From contig JBBQGG010000007.1 in the NCBI GenBank assembly GCA_038322815.1, positions 1,218-65,217 of the forward strand: a stretch of DNA of 64,000 nucleotides, in the 5' to 3' direction. This DNA comes from Candidatus Kapaibacterium sp. Lineage in GTDB: Bacteria > Bacteroidota > Ignavibacteria > Palsa-1295. The translations under genes and the position numbers were made by a program. The notes beneath the pieces are model-generated. The model made no database searches. It worked only from the letters and a program-made list of their open reading frames with translations, and was not told the DNA's origin. Within the stretch, counting starts at the first letter, position 1, and the number at the start of each line of letters is the position of its first letter. Of the stretch, positions 49,391 through 62,634 are shown piece after piece.

Positions 49391-50713
49391 ATGAAGGATG
49401 CAGGTAAAAGTAAAGACGAATTAGATAAACTTCGGAAACTCAGTACAGAAATAGATAACTTGGAAAGCCCATACAAAGCAATTGTCTCAGTTATGGTTTT
49501 GCGTGAAGGCTGGGATGTATAGAACGTAACTTCAATTGTCGGCTTGCGCCCTTTTGGTGCGGATAGTAAAATCCTTCCGGAGCAGACGGTAGGCAGAGGA
49601 CTCAGATTAATGTTTCGTGGTTCAGGTGTTCAGGAAAAAGTCAGCGTAGTCGGTACTGCTGCTTTTATTGAATTCGTCGAAGGCATTAAGAAAGAAGGCG
49701 TTGAAATAGATTATGCTCCTATGGGACCGGGTACGACCGGCAAAACTCCATTGATTATCGAAGTTGATAGAGAGAATAAGAAAAAGAATATTGATGCACT
49801 CGATATTAAATTACCAATTCTGCAAGCCCGCATTGCACGAGATTACAAAAATCTTCATGAGCTAAATGTGGCCAACTTCAATTTCCAACCTGCAAAGATT
49901 ATTAGCTTTTCTGAAGCACAGCAGCGGGACATTGTATTCCGAGAAATTGTCGATGGCGAAATAAGTCATACAACACAAATGGATGGAAATCTCGAAATCA
50001 GCCCACAAAATGTTATCGGCTTCTTTGCACAAAATATAAGCCGCGAGCTTCGTCTAGTCGGTGCGAACGATGTACTTTTCGGCAAAGTGAAGCAATTCAT
50101 TACCGGACATTTGTTCGGAAAAGAAGTTGAAATCGCTGATCCAAATATCCTTCGGAATTTATCTGAGTCAGTTACTAAATCCCGGATATATGAAACGTTC
50201 AAAGGTGAGATTAATAAGTTAACCGTTCGGGATTCAGGCACCACGCGCATTTCTTCACACATAAAGTTAAGCGAGGCAAGACCTGTAGTAGTCAACGATC
50301 AGCCGGTTCTCTACCCGAAGCGATCAATTTTTAATAAAGTAGTTGGCAATAATCTTGAACTTGATTTTGCAAGCTTTCTCGATGATGCAAAAGATATTCT
50401 TTCTTTCGCTCGTAACAGGCAACGAGATGGTTTAAGTATTGAATATCAGCCATCGTCAGGTGGTATAGCAACCTATGTGCCTGACTATATCGTAAAAGAA
50501 CGCGATGATTCTATCTGGATAATAGAGACGAAGGGCAGAGAAGATATTGAAGATCCCCGCAAAATTGCCCGACTTCAGGATTGGTGCAAGGATGCAACTG
50601 CGCATGACGGGAAGATAAAGTACCAGGCAATGTTCGTACGGGAAGAGGATTTCAAGAAGTACCAGCCTACGAAGTTTTCGCAGGCGAACGAGTTATTCGT
50701 CAAAAAGAAATAA
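49391..50713 (+). pseudogene. 3' remnant of a type III restriction endonuclease Res subunit gene (helicase motifs V-VI plus C-terminal PD-(D/E)xK nuclease), with an in-frame TAG
   Basis: The frame opens immediately after the M42 stop. ...AIVSVMVLREGWDV*NVTSIVGLRPFGADSKILPEQTVGRGLRL matches Res motif V (ALREGWDNPNV) and motif VI (Q.IGRGLRL), with a stop in between. The C-terminal VPDYIV...IWIIETKG is nuclease-like. The N-terminal ~600 aa of a normal Res are absent. Confidence 0.6.
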
Positions 50714-50720
50714 AAACATT

Positions 50721-51047
50721 ATGGCAAAAGAAAAAGCGAGGCTCACTCTTCGTATCAAGCGCAAATGGCTTGAAGAAATCGTCTTCGGGAAGAAGCGGAT
50801 CGAGTGTCGGGACAATACAAAATTTTATGCGCAACGTCTTCTCGAGACAGACGAAGATGGTGATCTAGTGTGCAGAAAGTTTGATGAAGTGTATTTCTAT
50901 TGCCCAATCGGGCAGACGGGTCAGAATCTTATGGACGTCGTACAATACAAAAAGACTGACTGGAACGAGAAGATCAATCAGATGGAAATTTATTTAGGAA
51001 AGGTCATTTCGCATAATCTGCCGACGCCGAAGGTTAAGAAGAAATAA
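50721..51047 (+). CDS. ASCH domain protein
   Basis: 108 aa with the GxKxxExR signature (FGKKRIECR) characteristic of the ASCH/PUA-like fold. Confidence 0.55.
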   Translation: MAKEKARLTLRIKRKWLEEIVFGKKRIECRDNTKFYAQRLLETDEDGDLVCRKFDEVYFYCPIGQTGQNLMDVVQYKKTDWNEKINQMEIYLGKVISHNLPTPKVKKK

Positions 51048-51155: not shown

Positions 51156-51536
51156 TTAGGGTGTGGTAGATCCCAGAAGCTTTTCTTTTGCTACTCGTTC
51201 TATCTCTGTCAGAACATCATCAATTGTGTTTGTCACTTCGGTATCTGTGAATCTGAGAAAAGTTATTTTATATCCTTCGATAATTTTTTGCCGCCATTCG
51301 TCTTTTCTTTTTGCATCTTCGCTATCGTGCGTTGCTCCATCGAGTTCGATGGCAAGTCTTATTTCAGGCGCATAAAAATCGAGGACGAAGCCGCCGACGC
51401 TGTATTGGCGGCGGAATTTTATTCCGGCAATTTGGGAGTTGCGGACACGTCGCCAAATCAGCTTTTCCGAGAAAGTAGAGTCATGCCTGAGCGCGCGGCG
51501 TTTTTCTTTATGCTCGGATTTGTTGTAGAGTTTCAT
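51156..51536 (-). CDS. DUF559 (Vsr-like endonuclease domain) protein
   Basis: 126 aa. The ...GFVLDFYAPEIRLAIELDGATHD...ITFLRF pattern is typical of DUF559. Flanked on both sides by a CCTCACCCCAGCCCTCTCCTTA hairpin repeat. Confidence 0.75.
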   Translation of the reverse strand: MKLYNKSEHKEKRRALRHDSTFSEKLIWRRVRNSQIAGIKFRRQYSVGGFVLDFYAPEIRLAIELDGATHDSEDAKRKDEWRQKIIEGYKITFLRFTDTEVTNTIDDVLTEIERVAKEKLLGSTTP

Positions 51537-51556
51537 GGTGCAAAAATACGAAGAGA

Positions 51557-51592
51557 CCTCACCCCAGCCCTCTCCTTATAAAGGAGAGGGAG
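51557..51592. repeat. hairpin repeat element, copy 2 (between DUF559 and AlbA_2)
   Basis: CCTCACCCCAGCCCTCTCCTTATAAAGGAGAGGGAG. Confidence 0.75.
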
Positions 51593-51601
51593 TTTGAAGC
51601 T

Positions 51602-52078
51602 TTGATTGCCCAAGGAGAAAGCCATGAATTGGAATTCAAAGAGACTGGACGCTGGGATGTACGGCAGGGAATGGTTAGCCCGGTTATGGGGCAGATACTC
51701 GTGAAGACAGTTGCCGGTTTCATGAATTCAGAATCCGGAGGTTCACTCATCATTGGAGTAGATGATTCAGGAATTGCTATTGGTATCGACCGAGACCTTG
51801 CGACATTCGGGAAGAAGCATAATCCAAAAGATGAATTCGAGCAGTACCTTCAAAATCTCATCCTTTCTCGTTGCGGAAAAGAATCTGCGGCATTAGTAAA
51901 GATTATTTTCCACACTACCCAAGGAAAAGAACTCTGTAAAATCGAAGTAAAGCCATCGCTGAAGCAAGTGTATGTTACCGAAGACTCTGTTGAGAAATTT
52001 TATGTCCGCTCAGGCAATACAACGCAAACACTTTCGATGAGTGAAGCACATGAGTATATCCGTCACAGATTCCGGTAA
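51602..52078 (+). CDS. AlbA_2 (Schlafen-like, 'divergent AAA') domain protein
   Basis: ESHELEFKETGRWDV...QILVKTVAGFMNSESGGSLIIGVDDSGIAIGI matches the AlbA_2 core (E.LEFK...LKTI.AFAN..GG.L.IGVDD.G.VVG). Confidence 0.6.
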   Translation: MIAQGESHELEFKETGRWDVRQGMVSPVMGQILVKTVAGFMNSESGGSLIIGVDDSGIAIGIDRDLATFGKKHNPKDEFEQYLQNLILSRCGKESAALVKIIFHTTQGKELCKIEVKPSLKQVYVTEDSVEKFYVRSGNTTQTLSMSEAHEYIRHRFR

Positions 52079-52553: not shown

Positions 52554-53357
52554 ATGATACCGAAAGACGTGAAAACAGTATATATAAAGAATATTCCAGT
52601 CGCTCACGGTGAGATCAGCGTTGTGCTGGCTGACGATGCGGAAAAATTGATGCGCCATTCTTGCCAAGTTGGAGAACAAATTAAGCGCGCAGGGCTTGGC
52701 GTCCTTCTCATTAATTGCGGAATGAGCGACCGTCGCTTCCGCAATCATGCGCGTGAAGCAACGACAGCACTGGAGGGTCAGCCGTTCGAGCACATGCCCT
52801 ACGCAACCGGAACCGATGCACCCAAAGAGATGCTGATCCATAGTTCGGTCGCCGGCGATCTTATCGGCGAGATGGATCTGCTCAGCGGACTTGTTGCCCA
52901 GTGCGCGATCGGTGTCGTAATAATCGCCGGATGGGAATGGACTTCATCCGGATATCGCCGGAAAGAACGGCTGCTCTATGCCATACGTGAGATGATGAGG
53001 AAGTATGATGTAGCCGTAGTCATTTATGCATCAGCCAAGACGAATTCGCAGCCCGGCAAATGTGACCGCGGCGGAATCGGCAGATTAGCGATGCTTGCCG
53101 TCTCGATCCTGAATTTGGATGCTGCTGATATGTTAGAATCGGTTTCTCCGAAGCCGCTGCCCATCGTTGCAACTAAAAAAGATTGGGAAGATGCCGAGCG
53201 AAGTGCACAATTACTTGGCAGTAAAATCAATGAGTTAGGGGGGGGTCGATGGTCGATCGTCGATAGTCGGGGAATGAGGGCAAAAGGATTGAAGGCGCCG
53301 GTGAAGTCAACATTATTGATGAAACCGAAGATTTTAACCGGGAATCAGGCAGGGTAA
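52554..53357 (+). CDS. hypothetical protein, possibly a degenerate RecA/DnaB-like P-loop fold lacking Walker A
   Basis: 267 aa. Alternating beta-strand-like hydrophobic runs (GVLLINCG, VVIIAGWEW, VAVVIYASAKTNSQ), but no GxxxxGK[ST] motif. Good RBS (AGGAG) upstream. Lies in the island next to the AlbA_2 and DUF559 genes. Confidence 0.35.
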   Translation: MIPKDVKTVYIKNIPVAHGEISVVLADDAEKLMRHSCQVGEQIKRAGLGVLLINCGMSDRRFRNHAREATTALEGQPFEHMPYATGTDAPKEMLIHSSVAGDLIGEMDLLSGLVAQCAIGVVIIAGWEWTSSGYRRKERLLYAIREMMRKYDVAVVIYASAKTNSQPGKCDRGGIGRLAMLAVSILNLDAADMLESVSPKPLPIVATKKDWEDAERSAQLLGSKINELGGGRWSIVDSRGMRAKGLKAPVKSTLLMKPKILTGNQAG

Positions 53358-53479: not shown

Positions 53480-54340
53480 ATGAAAGAAAAGAAGATCGTA
53501 CGAGTCGGATCTGTTGAATGCGGAGCAGATACGCTGTTTTTGATTTCCGGTCCCTGTGTCATCGAAGATGATACAGTGATGAACCGTACGGCAGAAAAGC
53601 TGAAGATGGTATCTGAGCGATTGAATATTCCCGTTATTTTCAAATCATCATTTCAAAAAGATAATCGCAGCTCCGTAAAATTTTATCAGGGACCTGGATT
53701 AGAAAAAGGATTACGCACCCTTGAAAGAATAAAAAATGATTTTGGGTTTGCACTACTGACCGATGTTCACTATCCCGAACAAGTAAACGCTGCTGCCGAT
53801 GTTGTTGATGTTATTCAGATCCCAGCATATCTTTGTATGCAGACAACACTTACCGTCGAATGCGCGAAGACGATGAAAGTAGTAAATATCAAGCATGGGC
53901 AGTTCATTGCGCCGGAGATGATGATCAAGCCCATCGAAAAATGCTTGGAATCCGGCAACGATCAGATCATTCTTACTGAACGCGGATATGCATTCGGTTA
54001 TAACGATCTTGTTGTTGATCCCCGGAGTTTTTATCATTTGAATAAAACAGGGTATCCTGTTGTTTTTGATATCACCCATTCCATCCGCAAATATGGTATT
54101 CCGAGTTCGGATCCGCGCGGAGGATCAAAAGAATTTTTAGATACGATCGGGCGCGCAGGTGTTGCAGCAGGAGTTGACGGCATATTTGTTGAAACACATC
54201 CTGAACCGGAGAAAGCATTATGCGATGCAGCAAGCCAGATGTGCGTTTATGATCTCGAAGAATTTCTCTTGCCTCTTATTGATCTGCACGAGACCGAAGT
54301 AAAATACAGAAAAAAGACCCACCATGGAGTTATATCTTGA
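53480..54340 (+). CDS. kdsA: 3-deoxy-8-phosphooctulonate synthase
   Basis: 286 aa with the KdsA pattern (LFLISGPCVIE...VIFKSSFQKDNRSS...HYPEQ). DAHP-synthase-like TIM barrel. Confidence 0.9.
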   Translation: MKEKKIVRVGSVECGADTLFLISGPCVIEDDTVMNRTAEKLKMVSERLNIPVIFKSSFQKDNRSSVKFYQGPGLEKGLRTLERIKNDFGFALLTDVHYPEQVNAAADVVDVIQIPAYLCMQTTLTVECAKTMKVVNIKHGQFIAPEMMIKPIEKCLESGNDQIILTERGYAFGYNDLVVDPRSFYHLNKTGYPVVFDITHSIRKYGIPSSDPRGGSKEFLDTIGRAGVAAGVDGIFVETHPEPEKALCDAASQMCVYDLEEFLLPLIDLHETEVKYRKKTHHGVIS

Positions 54341-55349
54341 TTCGGTAAATATTAAAGAAATTGAAAGTGCGTTTAAACTCGGCATTCTTGCCGGGCTTAC
54401 AACAACGCCGACTTTTCTGCATCGCGAAGGCATTACCGATATTGACGGTACGATCCTGAAGCTTGCAAAGATTGTCCCGATACTACAAGTCGAAGCATTA
54501 GGAAAAAATGCCGATGAGATCGTTGCCGAAGCAGATCGTCTTATTAAGATCGGTCTCGATCCGAAAAAAACTGTTTTTAAGATACCTGTATCACTCGAAG
54601 GTATCACGGCATGCAAGCGTCTTCGTGATAAAGGGATGATGGTCAATATTCATCTTGTCTATACATTGCAGCAGGCATACATGGCAGCTACTGCCGGGGC
54701 GACGTATGTTTGCCCGCTTGTCGGAAGATTGCAGGATCAGGGGCATGATGCTCTTGCACTTATTGAGCAATGCGTGAAGATGGTTGACAGGTATAAATAT
54801 GATACGAAGATCATGTTCTCATCGGTACGAAACGTAGAGCATGTGCGCAATGCCATCAATCTCGGAGTGCAGACGATAACCGTTCCGTGGAGCGTTATGA
54901 AAAAGCTGACGGAAAACTCATTCACTGATCTCGGCACAAAACAATTTTTTGATCATACGACGCTGATGACAACAACCGTTGCAGAAGTGATTCGTGAAGA
55001 CAATCCAATTGTAACTCTTGATAGTACAGTACTCGATGCATCGCTGAAAATGACGGAGTCAGGTTTCGGAGCGGTGACAGTTGTAGGAAGCAAAGGAGAG
55101 GTTATCGGAGTCTTTACCGACGGCGTGCTCCGCCGCGAACTCAAAGACAAAGGAAAATCCCTGCTCGATAAGAAAATGTCCGATTTTACATTTAAAGCGC
55201 CGATCACAACTACAGCAGACGATATTCTTGAAAATGCCGTTGCACTTATGAAAACTCATAAGGTGGATAATATTGTTGTGACAACTGATGCAAAGCCTAT
55301 CGGTATGCTTGACGTACAGGATCTTCTAAAACTGGATCTAAGTGAGTGA
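54324..55349 (+). CDS. fructose-6-phosphate aldolase/TalC-family (class I aldolase) domain fused to a C-terminal CBS-domain pair
   Basis: The N-terminal ~215 aa (MELYLDSVNIKEIESAFKLGILAGLTTTPTFLHREG, catalytic Lys in VFKIPVSLEG, YVCPLVGRL) is FSA/TalC-like. The C-terminal ~125 aa is two CBS motifs. Overlaps kdsA by 17 nt and is followed by kdsC. Confidence 0.75.
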   Translation: MELYLDSVNIKEIESAFKLGILAGLTTTPTFLHREGITDIDGTILKLAKIVPILQVEALGKNADEIVAEADRLIKIGLDPKKTVFKIPVSLEGITACKRLRDKGMMVNIHLVYTLQQAYMAATAGATYVCPLVGRLQDQGHDALALIEQCVKMVDRYKYDTKIMFSSVRNVEHVRNAINLGVQTITVPWSVMKKLTENSFTDLGTKQFFDHTTLMTTTVAEVIREDNPIVTLDSTVLDASLKMTESGFGAVTVVGSKGEVIGVFTDGVLRRELKDKGKSLLDKKMSDFTFKAPITTTADDILENAVALMKTHKVDNIVVTTDAKPIGMLDVQDLLKLDLSE

Positions 55350-59526: not shown

Positions 59527-61188
59527 TTACATTTCCTGTAAATATTTCCTTACAAATCTTATAGCCAAGGCACCTTCGCCTACGGCAGATGAAATACCTG
59601 CAAGCGCTCCGGAGCGGACATCACCTGAAGCAAAGATACCCGGAATACTTGTTTCCGGTATATATGGCTCTCTGCTTAATTTCCAAAACGTATTATACGA
59701 TTTTTCTTTTTTAAGATCACTGCCGGTGAGGACGAATCCCTTTTCATCTTTTAAAACAACATCACTAAGCCACTGCGTACCCGGTCTTACACCAATATAA
59801 ATAAACAAGGCTTTTGCAGACACTGATATTTCCGTATTTGTTTTTGTATTCTTCAGAGTAATGTTTTCCAGTACATCTTTGCCCGTGACCGAAGTTACTT
59901 CAGTATTCGGATGAACCACAATATTTGGAGTGTTGCTGATATTTTGCACTAAATAATTTGCTGCGGCTTGCTTCAAGGTATCCTGTCGGATAAGAATATG
60001 TACTTCTTTTGCAAATTTAGACATATACATTGCAGCCTGACACGCTGAGTTACCTCCGCCGACAATGTAAATATTTTCATTACGGCAGGCATGAGCTTCC
60101 ACTGAAGCTGCACCATAATAGATTCCTGCTCCCGTAAATTTTTCTATTCCCGGTATTTCAAGTTTGATGTACGAAGCGCCGGTTGCAATGACGATCGTTT
60201 TACTATGGACAAGTGAACCATCACTTAATTCGATGATCTTATATCCATCTTGTACCGTAATATTTTTTACTGATTGCGGAGTAAGTATTTCCGTACCGAA
60301 TCGCAGCGTTTGCGAGATCGCTCTTCTGCTTAACTCCGCACCGGATAGACCTGTGGGAAAGCCAAGGTAATTTTCTATTCTTGCACTGCTCGAAGCCTGC
60401 CCGCCCGGATTACTTCTTTCGATAAGGAGTGTTGTCAATCCTTCACAGGAGCCATAGACCGATGCGGTAAGCCCTGCAGGACCTGCGCCGATGATCGCAA
60501 CGTCATACATTTTTGCCGAGGCTTGCTGGCGAAGCCCGACCTGTGCACCAAGATCAGTGAGTGAAGGGTCAACAAGAAATGATCCATCCTTCAATATGAC
60601 AAGCGGAAGTTCTGACCGTGAGATATCAGAACTCGCAAGATATTTTTCTGCATCTTCGTGAGATTCAACATCCATCCACAGGAATGGCACTAAATTTCCT
60701 GAAAGAAATTCTTTTAACTTATGTGATTTTGGTGACCATTGAAAACCGATGATCCTTATTCCTTCATGATCGGGTTTATATAATGCCTGCCAGTCATCGA
60801 GCATATCATTGATCACCGGGTAGAGTTTTTCTTCAGGAGGATCCCACGGTTTGAGAAGATAGTAATCAAGCTTTACAGTATTAATTGCTTTGATCGCCGC
60901 TTCAATATCCGAATATGCGGTGAGCAATATCTGTTTGGCATCGGGAAAAATTTCTCTCGTCTTTTCGAGAAATTCAATTCCTTCCATTTCCGGCATCCGC
61001 TGATCCGAAATAAATAATGCCACAGATTCATTTTTCAGCTTCAATTCTTTAATAAGTTCAAGCGCTTCTGCGGCCGATTCTGTTGCGACGATGCGGTACT
61101 CTTCGCGATACTTATTCCGTATATCGCGGCTGATCGCGCGGAGTACTTGCGTGTCATCATCAACAATGACAATAAATGGAAGTTTCAT
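59527..61188 (-). CDS. response regulator: REC domain, then a CxxC-less glutaredoxin-like domain, then a thioredoxin-reductase-like FAD/NAD(P) domain lacking the redox-active CxxC
   Basis: REC (IVIVDDD...D at ISDQRMP...K in YLLKP). Middle region WSPKS where Grx has CPYC. TrxR-like part with GAGPAG and GGGNSA dinucleotide motifs, but ASVEAHAC where TrxR has CATC. Confidence 0.7.
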   Translation of the reverse strand: MKLPFIVIVDDDTQVLRAISRDIRNKYREEYRIVATESAAEALELIKELKLKNESVALFISDQRMPEMEGIEFLEKTREIFPDAKQILLTAYSDIEAAIKAINTVKLDYYLLKPWDPPEEKLYPVINDMLDDWQALYKPDHEGIRIIGFQWSPKSHKLKEFLSGNLVPFLWMDVESHEDAEKYLASSDISRSELPLVILKDGSFLVDPSLTDLGAQVGLRQQASAKMYDVAIIGAGPAGLTASVYGSCEGLTTLLIERSNPGGQASSSARIENYLGFPTGLSGAELSRRAISQTLRFGTEILTPQSVKNITVQDGYKIIELSDGSLVHSKTIVIATGASYIKLEIPGIEKFTGAGIYYGAASVEAHACRNENIYIVGGGNSACQAAMYMSKFAKEVHILIRQDTLKQAAANYLVQNISNTPNIVVHPNTEVTSVTGKDVLENITLKNTKTNTEISVSAKALFIYIGVRPGTQWLSDVVLKDEKGFVLTGSDLKKEKSYNTFWKLSREPYIPETSIPGIFASGDVRSGALAGISSAVGEGALAIRFVRKYLQEM

Positions 61189-61212: not shown

Positions 61213-62634
61213 TTAAGGTGATTCCTGAACTTGTGAAACAGGAATGCAGACGACAAATTCCGTTTTGCCCGGAACAGAATTTACTGTTATAACCCCATGA
61301 TGTCTCGTGATAATTCTTTTGACAACATCCAAACCGATCCCTGTGCCTTGTCCTATTTTTTTTGTCGTGAAAAATGGATCAAAAATTCTGGATTGTATCT
61401 CTTTCGGAATTCCAGCACCGTTATCAATAATGCGGATGGTAATGTCTTTTTTTCCTGATGATGTTTCGATCACTAACTCTCCGTTCGTTTCAAGTGCATC
61501 GATCGCATTGTCGATCAGATTTGTCCAGACCTGATTGAGTTCACCGATGTAAGCCTCGACCATAGGCATCTCTGCGCAAAAAGTTTTTTTCACCGTGATC
61601 TTTTTGTCGCGGATCTTGTATCCCATAAGCGTCAGCGTATTTTCAATATCGGTATGAATATTGGTACGCTGTGCATCATTGGTTCTATCCATGTGCACAT
61701 GACTTTTAATAGCGCCTACTAATGTTGAGATACGAGTTGAAGCATCTGTAAGATCAACGATCAGCCGGTCAGAGATTATAATATTTTCTATCCATCGAAG
61801 CAGATCGGCAAGTGTATCACCTTTGAGCTCGCGGCGGATGTTCTCTAGATCAATAGTTGAAAATCCGAATTCAGAAAATGTCTCGGCAGCGGCGATATTA
61901 TCAGGTATACCGTTAGCAGATAACCAGTCGGCTATCTCATCCTCTTTTTGCATCCGTTCGCGTGCGCTCAATGTCTTTTTTTGTTTTGATTCTTTTTCAT
62001 TTACCAATGACCTGATATTTTCAATATGCTTGGCGTCAAAATTATCGGCAAGAAGTTTGGAGATCAGATCGTAATTTGCATTCAACCTTTTTTTTAATTC
62101 TGCAGCGATTCTTGCGATCGCTGAAGCTGGGTTATTGAGTTCATGTGCAATACCTGCAGATAATTTTCCGAGTGCACTGACCTTTTCATGCTGTAGCTGT
62201 ACCGTTGCAAACGCCTTTGCACGTTCAGTCATATAGCCGATAAGCTTCTGAACAAAATTAGAGTTCAGCTGCTCCAACTCTCCAAAGTAATCCTTATGCA
62301 GACTAAGCACTCTGAGCTTACTAACACTTATGGATTTTCCCGGAGAAGTTTTCATGCGTGAATGGGGGATCAACCCGGTAATGCCGCCGGAGGACCTATC
62401 ATTCTCAAAACTCATATAATAGACTAATGTGCCATTCATATCCATATAGAAATCAAGCTTGCCTTCAAGCAGGATCCACATATACATTGCCGGTTCTCTG
62501 GTATTGAAGAGCACAGTACCATCTTCATATTCATTATACTCAGTACGATCGATGATCCATTGAAGATGTTCATCCGGCAGATCGCTCAGAGCAATTACAT
62601 TTTTTAGTTCTTGGGTCGTTACGTTGTGACTCAT
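61213..62634 (-). CDS. sensor histidine kinase with an N-terminal cyclic-nucleotide-binding-like domain
   Basis: The N-terminal ~120 aa has a cNMP-binding/CAP-like beta-roll (TVLFNTREPAMYMWILLEGKLD). Then HisKA (H-box AHELNNP) and HATPase_c (NLIDNA, GxGxG). No TM segments. Confidence 0.7.
   Translation of the reverse strand: MSHNVTTQELKNVIALSDLPDEHLQWIIDRTEYNEYEDGTVLFNTREPAMYMWILLEGKLDFYMDMNGTLVYYMSFENDRSSGGITGLIPHSRMKTSPGKSISVSKLRVLSLHKDYFGELEQLNSNFVQKLIGYMTERAKAFATVQLQHEKVSALGKLSAGIAHELNNPASAIARIAAELKKRLNANYDLISKLLADNFDAKHIENIRSLVNEKESKQKKTLSARERMQKEDEIADWLSANGIPDNIAAAETFSEFGFSTIDLENIRRELKGDTLADLLRWIENIIISDRLIVDLTDASTRISTLVGAIKSHVHMDRTNDAQRTNIHTDIENTLTLMGYKIRDKKITVKKTFCAEMPMVEAYIGELNQVWTNLIDNAIDALETNGELVIETSSGKKDITIRIIDNGAGIPKEIQSRIFDPFFTTKKIGQGTGIGLDVVKRIITRHHGVITVNSVPGKTEFVVCIPVSQVQESP

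Follow-up and report, generated by a model that had tools for sequence, protein, structure and literature searches.

Within a 64,000-nucleotide stretch of contig JBBQGG010000007.1 from Candidatus Kapaibacterium sp. (the whole stretch analysed here, referred to as the window), the slot of kdsD between kdsA and a kdsC-like gene is occupied by a fusion of a transaldolase-family (TAL_FSA) barrel to a pair of CBS domains. Most diderm bacteria cannot make lipopolysaccharide without synthesising 3-deoxy-D-manno-octulosonic acid (Kdo), a pathway that is taken to begin universally with KdsD, the arabinose 5-phosphate (A5P) isomerase, which is also regarded as a target for antibiotics. The best explanation for the fusion is that it is a non-orthologous replacement of KdsD, produced by a domain swap in an ancestral kdsD that lay between kdsA and kdsC. 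KdsA needs A5P and the catalytic domain of kdsD has been replaced while its regulator and its slot were kept, which is most simply read as the new domain being the one that provides A5P. Taking protein signatures and gene context together, we consider it probable that the fusion supplies A5P to KdsA. That it does so specifically through aldol chemistry between glycolaldehyde and D-glyceraldehyde 3-phosphate (G3P) is a tentative proposal, made by analogy with related enzymes.

The domain architecture of the protein is clear from both profiles and structure prediction. The Pfam profile PF00923 (TAL_FSA) matches residues 3-202 at 126 bits (cut-off 27), and two CBS matches follow (53 bits against a cut-off of 24). 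An AlphaFold2 (AF2) model has a barrel core with predicted local distance difference test (pLDDT) values of 80-96, a disordered linker at residues 199-218 and a separate CBS module. Foldseek returned the solved structures 1vpx, 3r8r and 3s0c as best matches for the barrel, with a target TM-score of 0.85-0.9 and a probability of 1.00, so that membership in the PF00923 family is supported by profile and fold alike. A preliminary description of this DNA, made from the letters alone, had called an aldolase-CBS fusion here, and its open reading frame (ORF) proved exact; the Schiff-base lysine that it had placed in a KIP motif is Lys86, which aligns with Lys86 of the Thermoplasma acidophilum transaldolase TacTal and with Lys85 of fructose-6-phosphate aldolase (FSA). 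An identical protein is present on other public contigs and, among 5.8 billion proteins searched, more than 3,800 match the fusion at E <= 1e-10, which shows that the gene in the window is real. The top 120 of these matches are all full-length TAL_FSA+CBS proteins, 64-98% identical to the query and named only 'transaldolase family protein' or 'CBS domain-containing protein'.

To describe the gene context of the fusion we used 81 reference loci, consisting of bacterium 336/3 and the best 80 from a GTDB scan in which one genome stood for each species; 76 of them have enough flanking sequence for adjacency counts. A KdsC-like gene lies directly downstream of the fusion in 59/76 loci and kdsA directly upstream in 30/76, with both flanking it in 29. 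KdsB is encoded nearby in 9 loci, spread across diverse members, and the Kdo transferase WaaA in 5. In five loci kdsB, waaA, kdsA, the fusion and the KdsC-like gene are all found together, that is, every Kdo gene but kdsD; at locus L028 the order is waaA-kdsB-kdsA-fusion-kdsC-like. The arrangement extends to a deeper clade of fusions, about 40-50% identical to the window protein, whose metagenome-assembled genomes (MAGs) are labelled Nitrospirota, Spirochaetales or 'bacterium'. One of its members, P0244, lies in a kdsB-kdsA-fusion-kdsC operon in which KdsC passes TIGR01670 (154 bits against 107), a Nitrospirota-labelled copy has the same arrangement, and a member with Asn at position 28 overlaps kdsA. 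Both the active-site signature described below and the kdsB-kdsA-fusion-kdsC order persist at only 42% identity. The KdsA of the P0244 lineage shares 46% identity with the KdsA of the window and 56% with that of a lineage whose KdsD is canonical. This implies that the fusion holds the slot in distantly related operon backbones. The preliminary description had placed the fusion in the kdsD slot between kdsA and kdsC, and the synteny conserved across distant lineages bears this out. In the whole GTDB scan, relatives of the fusion were found in at least 482 species, most of the bacteria concerned being uncultured.

We then asked where the CBS pair comes from. Among NCBIfam models, the CBS tail of the fusion (about 125 residues) scores best on those of KpsF/GutQ/KdsD (TIGR00393, NF008581 and NF008141), with E values of 1e-11 to 1e-14, while other CBS families reach 1e-7 or weaker; the tails of the deep clade reach 7e-26 on the KdsD-type models, and the CBS domain of an A5P isomerase in the Protein Data Bank (PDB; 4o9k) matches the fusion CBS pair at 3e-11. 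When residues 212-341 alone were searched against 1.84 billion representative proteins, two kinds of protein made up the full-length matches whose N-terminal domain could be assigned: TAL+CBS proteins and, for nearly all those beyond the fusions, canonical SIS+CBS KdsDs, of which there were at least 35 representatives. The nearest of these KdsDs are encoded in the operons lpxK-kdsB-kdsA-kdsD and kdsB-pyrG-kdsA-kdsD-kdsC. BLASTP of the fusion against them shows homology from residue ~215 of the fusion (~205 of KdsD) to the C-terminus, at 36-39% identity, and the point at which homology starts is the linker between the SIS and CBS domains of KdsD.

A second comparison addressed the operon as a whole. 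A metagenome scan with the KdsA of a deep-clade operon (L090) recovered six loci with the structure kdsA-[SIS-CBS]-kdsC (L101-L106, L101 ending inside the CBS region). Compared with L090, the KdsA proteins of these loci are 42-50% identical, the CBS pairs 44-51% and the KdsC proteins 47-48%. The CBS pair has hence diverged in step with KdsA and KdsC while the N-terminal fold is a different one, indicating that only the catalytic domain was exchanged. An in-place swap of the kdsD catalytic domain, with a CBS pair derived from KdsD, is strongly supported by these alignments, and the ancestral kdsD at this locus would have been destroyed by it. The idea of a KdsD-like CBS pair kept through a domain swap, already put forward in the preliminary description, thus gains both a boundary at the KdsD linker and an equal divergence of KdsA, CBS and KdsC.

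We looked for a SIS domain at several scales. In agreement with the preliminary description, tblastn of E. coli KdsD (from NC_000913.3) against all 64 kb of the window revealed no SIS domain, the match being to the CBS tail only (residues 217-324). The fusion protein has no SIS match in Pfam or NCBIfam. No SIS-type gene lies within 10 kb of the fusion in the 81 loci, and in none of the ~100 loci examined altogether do a SIS gene and the fusion occur together. In a plasmid collection, the isomerases found were only Proteobacterial KpsF and single-domain proteins of Bacteroidales, none being from Cytophagales; the fusion itself was absent from this collection, where no match covered >= 80% of the protein. 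The argument for a replacement therefore rests on the loss of the ancestral kdsD in the swap, on ~100 neighbourhoods without a SIS domain, and on Kdo operons that are complete but for kdsD.

The barrel that took the place of the SIS domain has an active site of its own. Its nearest relatives are short transaldolases (3r8r, 1vpx and 3s0c, E 1e-32 to 1e-36), with E. coli FSA much further away (E 7e-16). The best NCBIfam model for the barrel, TIGR00875 (fsa/talC/mipB), gives 167.3 bits against a cut-off of 245.95, so that the FSA equivalog is not reached, and none of the curated cut-offs for transaldolase or FSA is passed by the fusion. Asp6, Lys86 and the phosphate site Arg135/Ser167/Arg169 are retained and invariant in 81/81 loci. 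At position 57 the fusion has the Glu of short transaldolases, where E. coli FSA has Gln, and at position 108 their Asn, where FSA has Leu. On the other hand, position 28 is Thr instead of the Asn found in both groups, and position 110 is His (81/81 loci) instead of the Thr of both. Position 130 is Cys (77/81), being Ser in short transaldolases and Ala in FSA, and position 132 is Leu (81/81), being Phe in the former and Tyr in the latter. The complete signature D6/T28/E57/K86/N108/H110/C130/L132/R135/S167/R169 is found in 228/241 full-length members, the whole deep clade included; three deep-clade members keep Asn28.

Measured against the residues that define each enzyme type, the fusion fits neither. 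Of the transaldolase residues (TacTal numbering), Glu is kept and the other four, Asn28, Thr110, Ser130 and Phe132, are changed; of those of FSA, the Lys is present and Tyr, Gln, Thr and Asn have become Leu132, Glu57, His110 and Thr28. In FSA, Lys85 and Tyr131 form a catalytic dyad in which Tyr131 is the proton shuttle, Gln59, Thr109 and Tyr131 hold the catalytic water, and Ala129 lines the donor pocket (PMC13259622). Asn28 of FSA is described as stabilising the oxyanion of the aldol step, and the FSA variants tested lost their activity when it was substituted (N28X; PMC6099348). By these signatures the barrel is neither an FSA nor an ordinary transaldolase, and the label of FSA/TalC-type aldolase given in the preliminary description did not hold: the fusion is closer to short transaldolases, has Glu57 and not the Gln59 of FSA, lacks a Tyr131 and has Asn28 replaced. 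Four of seven core active-site positions have changed throughout the family while the covalent lysine and the phosphate site were kept, which indicates that the barrel would be a functional enzyme with a new specificity rather than a decaying paralog.

We propose the following course of events. A short transaldolase-type barrel would have displaced the SIS domain of kdsD, its active site being remodelled afterwards, and the resulting protein would deliver A5P to KdsA for the first committed step of Kdo synthesis. A5P corresponds to fructose 6-phosphate minus C1 and should fit a transaldolase site, with its C1 in a Schiff base with Lys86 and its 5-phosphate in the Arg135/Ser167/Arg169 site; judging from the title of a 2014 paper by Light & Anderson that is cited in PMC7895386, A5P has reportedly been seen covalently bound to transaldolase. 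The single most likely chemistry, although speculative, would be a class I aldol addition in which a Lys86-bound enamine of glycolaldehyde attacks G3P. His110, together with Glu57, might assume the proton-shuttle role of Tyr131 in FSA, and Cys130 and Thr28 might fit the donor pocket to a donor devoid of the C1 hydroxymethyl group, both suggestions being equally speculative. KdsA and KdsC would pull the reaction forward, and the KdsD-type CBS pair presumably retains the same feedback input from the pathway. There is precedent for this chemistry: the E. coli FSA FsaA forms A5P from glycolaldehyde and G3P, and the transaldolase variant TalB-F178Y yields A5P and ribose 5-phosphate (PMC9947464). 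The route to A5P from glycolaldehyde and G3P, as advanced in the preliminary description, is one plausible chemistry but is not implied, as the FSA residues are missing; no glycolaldehyde source is apparent among the neighbouring genes.

Several points weigh against the fusion being an aldolase that replaces KdsD in this way. With Asn28 replaced by Thr and the shuttle Tyr131 by Leu, FSA-like catalysis cannot be assumed from the sequence. Free glycolaldehyde is scarce and toxic, and the demand for Kdo is far above the known by-product sources; no recurrent glycolaldehyde-producing gene was observed in the fusion neighbourhoods. Solitary copies of the fusion account for 13/81 loci, and a Spirochaetales-labelled copy of the deep clade is also unlinked to Kdo genes. 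A single-domain SIS isomerase of the Bacteroides type could be encoded elsewhere in these genomes, unlinked to the fusion. Finally, the scaffold can evidently persist without Schiff-base catalysis, as seen in a sister class that has lost the lysine.

The weak supply of glycolaldehyde leads us to give real weight to the possibility that A5P is made by other chemistry on the same scaffold, and above all by C2 epimerisation of ribose 5-phosphate. We give such chemistry a modest chance, which is contained in the probability assigned above to A5P supply as a whole. In a first version, Lys86 would form an iminium at C1 of ribose 5-phosphate, and C2 would be epimerised either by deprotonation and reprotonation or by cleavage of the C2-C3 bond and its re-forming after the bound glycolaldehyde enamine has flipped. 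In a second version, ribulose 5-phosphate (Ru5P) would be isomerised non-covalently through an enediol, with Glu57, His110 and Lys86 acting like the Glu/His/Lys triad of triosephosphate isomerase. Pentose phosphates are abundant and require no source of glycolaldehyde, which fits operons without an extra conserved gene. The formation of both A5P and its C2 epimer ribose 5-phosphate by TalB-F178Y shows that a transaldolase barrel can handle both through the same enamine (PMC9947464), the new invariant His110 stands beside Glu57 and Lys86, and the residue of FSA that stabilises the aldol oxyanion, Asn28, is precisely one of those replaced (PMC6099348). On chemical grounds, however, a Lys-C1 iminium deprotonated at C2 risks ending in an Amadori adduct, and the non-covalent version leaves a strictly conserved Schiff-base lysine without its usual role. 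To our knowledge no transaldolase-family enzyme epimerises or isomerises its substrate, and none turned up in the literature searched, which also counts against this chemistry.

Two further reactions were considered and rejected. A Schiff-base-mediated isomerisation of Ru5P to A5P would, on chemical grounds, give an Amadori/Heyns amine adduct and no releasable sugar, and the transaldolase-type release of A5P from an octulose phosphate would need a substrate that is not available as a central metabolite. A genetic link to G3P through phosphoglycerate kinase was likewise discarded: the 12 loci in which this gene immediately precedes the fusion (L018, L038, L045, L047, L048, L053, L058, L059, L061, L062, L065 and L079) all belong to one clade whose fusions are 90-99% identical, so that the link is probably a matter of local synteny.

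It is also conceivable, although we find it unlikely, that the fusion is an accessory enzyme of the Kdo operon and that A5P comes from a canonical SIS isomerase encoded elsewhere. The fusion would then balance A5P or make another precursor, for instance by removing excess A5P, which is reported to inhibit transaldolase. Our failure to find SIS genes covers only the window and ~100 neighbourhoods, some copies of the fusion are unlinked to Kdo genes, and FSA-type enzymes also cleave A5P, a synthetic pathway with KdsD and FsaA running in that direction (PMC6900487). Yet the fusion sits in the exact position of kdsD and carries the CBS pair of kdsD itself, implying that the local kdsD was destroyed by the swap, and none of the ~100 loci has both a SIS gene and the fusion. 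Moreover, an enzyme that degrades A5P and is co-translated with KdsA would compete for the substrate of KdsA.

Far less probable is that the fusion is an ordinary transaldolase paralog of the pentose-phosphate pathway that acquired a CBS pair, its position among Kdo genes being incidental. Its best sequence and fold matches are indeed real transaldolases, databases name it 'transaldolase family protein', and Glu57, Lys86, Asp6, Asn108 and the phosphate site are transaldolase-like. But the transaldolase-invariant Asn28, Thr110, Ser130 and Phe132 are all replaced, no curated transaldolase or FSA cut-off is reached, the CBS pair is specifically of the KdsD type, and synteny with kdsA/kdsB/kdsC/waaA is seen again and again in lineages that have no more than 43-46% identity in KdsA. 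Least credible of all is a non-catalytic pseudo-enzyme, a regulator or scaffold sensing a sugar phosphate in the Kdo pathway: the sister class of the same architecture does lack Lys86, Asp6 and Arg135, but all Schiff-base and phosphate-binding residues are kept in 228/241 members of the clade of the window, and the single member without the lysine whose context was looked at is not part of a Kdo operon.

Comparison with known systems shows where the fusion stands. The short transaldolases of subfamilies 4/5, TM0295 of Thermotoga maritima (1vpx), the Bacillus subtilis enzyme (3r8r) and TacTal (3s0c), have the same barrel fold and length at 33-35% identity and share with it Asp6, Glu57/60, Lys86, Asn108, Arg135, Ser167 and Arg169. 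They differ by the absence of Thr28/His110/Cys130/Leu132 and of the CBS pair, and by a pentose-phosphate context instead of a Kdo operon. E. coli FsaA (1l6w) belongs to the same family but is only 26% identical and has no CBS pair; the two have in common a donor-pocket residue other than Ser (Ala129 in FsaA, Cys130 in the fusion), and differ in Gln59, Leu107, Thr109 and Tyr131 of FsaA, which correspond to Glu57, Asn108, His110 and Leu132. The A5P activity of FsaA is used in synthetic pathways only, and the enzyme has no known physiological role in Kdo synthesis. KdsD/GutQ/KpsF share with the fusion the slot in kdsA-X-kdsC, a length of ~330 residues, a CBS pair with the motif TDGDLRR (36-51% identity) and the presumed role in the pathway, but their catalytic domain is a SIS Rossmann-like isomerase domain, unrelated to the Schiff-base TIM barrel of the fusion. 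That a short transaldolase barrel can take on a new substrate and pathway is documented by the sulfofructose transaldolase BmSF-TAL (8bc3/8c4i, going by the PDB titles; PMC7491151), which acts on a sulfosugar and has neither a CBS fusion nor a Kdo context.

In pathway terms the fusion would be KdsD-like while standing outside the KdsD family for want of a SIS domain, and its fold and predicted Schiff-base lysine assign it to the transaldolase/FSA superfamily. We regard it as a new subfamily of a known enzyme family and a non-orthologous domain displacement within a known pathway. Neither a TAL-CBS protein nor an isomerase-independent route to A5P for Kdo was found in the literature, most subscription journals being outside the search. 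We lean, by a small measure, towards the broader view that in many Bacteroidota, and here and there in other phyla, A5P is made without any SIS isomerase, by means of a Schiff-base enzyme of aldolase fold under the CBS regulator of KdsD, be it a natural A5P aldolase or a hitherto unknown ribose-5-phosphate 2-epimerase. If so, Kdo and lipopolysaccharide synthesis would for the first time be seen to start without an isomerase, the transaldolase family would gain a new class of reaction, the Kdo pathway would have to be revised, and annotation and inhibitors based on KdsD would have a blind spot. Should ribose 5-phosphate epimerisation be the true reaction, it would constitute a new enzyme activity. 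The locus also offers a clean natural case of catalytic-domain exchange in which the CBS module and the operon position are retained.

The best 80 relatives from the GTDB scan are mostly Bacteroidota. They include the isolates Thermonema rossianum DSM 10300 and Thermoflexibacter ruber DSM 9560 and MAGs labelled Bernardetiaceae, Raineyaceae, Cytophagales, Chitinophagales and Bacteroidia, together with seven MAGs labelled Desulfobacterales or 'Deltaproteobacteria'. In these seven (L011, L012, L014, L017, L023, L028 and L029) the kdsA-fusion-kdsC-like module is 64-71% identical to that of the window, and in five of them kdsB and waaA are nearby as well. Their labels may be wrong, the bins being of the Fibrobacteres-Chlorobi-Bacteroidetes (FCB) group, or the operon may have moved between phyla. 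Two proteins of the deep clade, P0300 and P0319, come under archaeal MAG labels that we distrust, 'Candidatus Thermoplasmatota archaeon' (89% identical to P0244) and 'Candidatus Helarchaeota archaeon'; these copies could be mis-binned bacterial contigs or a transferred operon of the Kdo type.

The sister class mentioned above (P0127, P0136, P0137 and P0139) has the same TAL_FSA+CBS architecture with a barrel identity of 22-40%. R or S stands there in place of the Schiff-base lysine K86 and E in place of Asp6, and Arg135 is lost too; its members are probably catalytically dead pseudo-aldolases, as far as their residues tell. P0136, the only one whose context was looked at, lies beside genes for a peptidase M61 and a phosphodiesterase and not beside Kdo genes.

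Table 1. Features of the kdsA-fusion-kdsC-like region, in window coordinates
Feature	Position	Strand	Basis and remarks
kdsA (3-deoxy-8-phosphooctulonate, Kdo8P, synthase)	53480..54340	+	NF003543, 326.7 bits against 242; Pfam DAHP_synth_1
TAL_FSA-CBS fusion gene	54324..55349	+	ATG ORF, 341 residues plus stop; start MELYLDS is the family N-terminus
(beta/alpha)8 transaldolase-family barrel, residues 1-210	54324..54953	+	Pfam PF00923, AF2, Foldseek
Thr28 codon, in place of Asn28 (TTNP motif)	54405..54407	+	Asn in all reference transaldolases and FSA
Lys86 codon AAG, predicted Schiff-base lysine	54579..54581	+	Alignment to solved transaldolases
His110 codon, in place of Thr	54651..54653	+	Alignment
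Cys130-Pro131-Leu132 codons	54711..54719	+	Ser-Pro-Phe in transaldolase, Ala-Pro-Tyr in FSA
Inter-domain linker, residues 199-218	54918..54977	+	AF2 pLDDT < 50; KdsD homology from about residue 215
KdsD-type CBS pair (Bateman module), residues 215-341	54966..55346	+	NCBIfam tails; TDG(D/V)LRR motif
KdsC-like HAD phosphatase, YrbI family, 226 residues	55342..56022	+	GTG start; 8-nucleotide overlap with the fusion

In the window the genes on both sides overlap the fusion (Table 1), the 3' end of kdsA and the start of the fusion sharing 17 nucleotides. KdsA passes the curated equivalog cut-off of NF003543 and is 76% identical to the KdsA of Thermonema rossianum. The downstream protein gives 54 bits on the KdsC model (cut-off 208) and 45.5 on TIGR01670 (cut-off 106.95); its HAD motif FDWDGVF (DxD) is intact and is kept in 61/61 orthologs. 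Of the two flanks named in the preliminary description, kdsA therefore stands as given, and the 'clear kdsC homolog' was somewhat overstated, KdsC-like being the better term. In the Bacteroidota clade (orthologs in L005-L084) this partner is 25-30% identical to standard KdsC, below the curated cut-offs, and has an N-terminal extension of ~30 residues with a conserved GGxF motif; the deep clade has an ordinary KdsC of 164-174 residues. The divergent phosphatase may have evolved together with the fusion.

Other genes of the window code for BamA, RpoN and two proteins that carry type IX secretion sorting domains, which indicates a diderm of the Bacteroidota/FCB type that should need Kdo. A scan for promoters and terminators around the operon was uninformative, the number of sites not being above that in shuffled sequence. 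Directly upstream of kdsA, a 267-residue ORF (52554-53357, + strand) has no Pfam or NCBIfam match and no counterpart in the 81 related loci. Genes of the defence or mobile-element type lie just upstream of the Kdo genes (51156-52078), namely a DUF559/MTES_1575 restriction-endonuclease-like protein (51156-51536, - strand) and a Schlafen/AlbA_2 protein (51602-52078), and are preceded by two ORFs without Pfam match (49544-50713 and 50721-51047). On the other side of the operon, a 553-residue protein (59527-61188, - strand) fuses a response-regulator receiver to a thioredoxin-reductase-like pyridine-nucleotide disulfide oxidoreductase, and beside it lies a gene for a histidine kinase (HATPase_c; 61213-62634, - strand).

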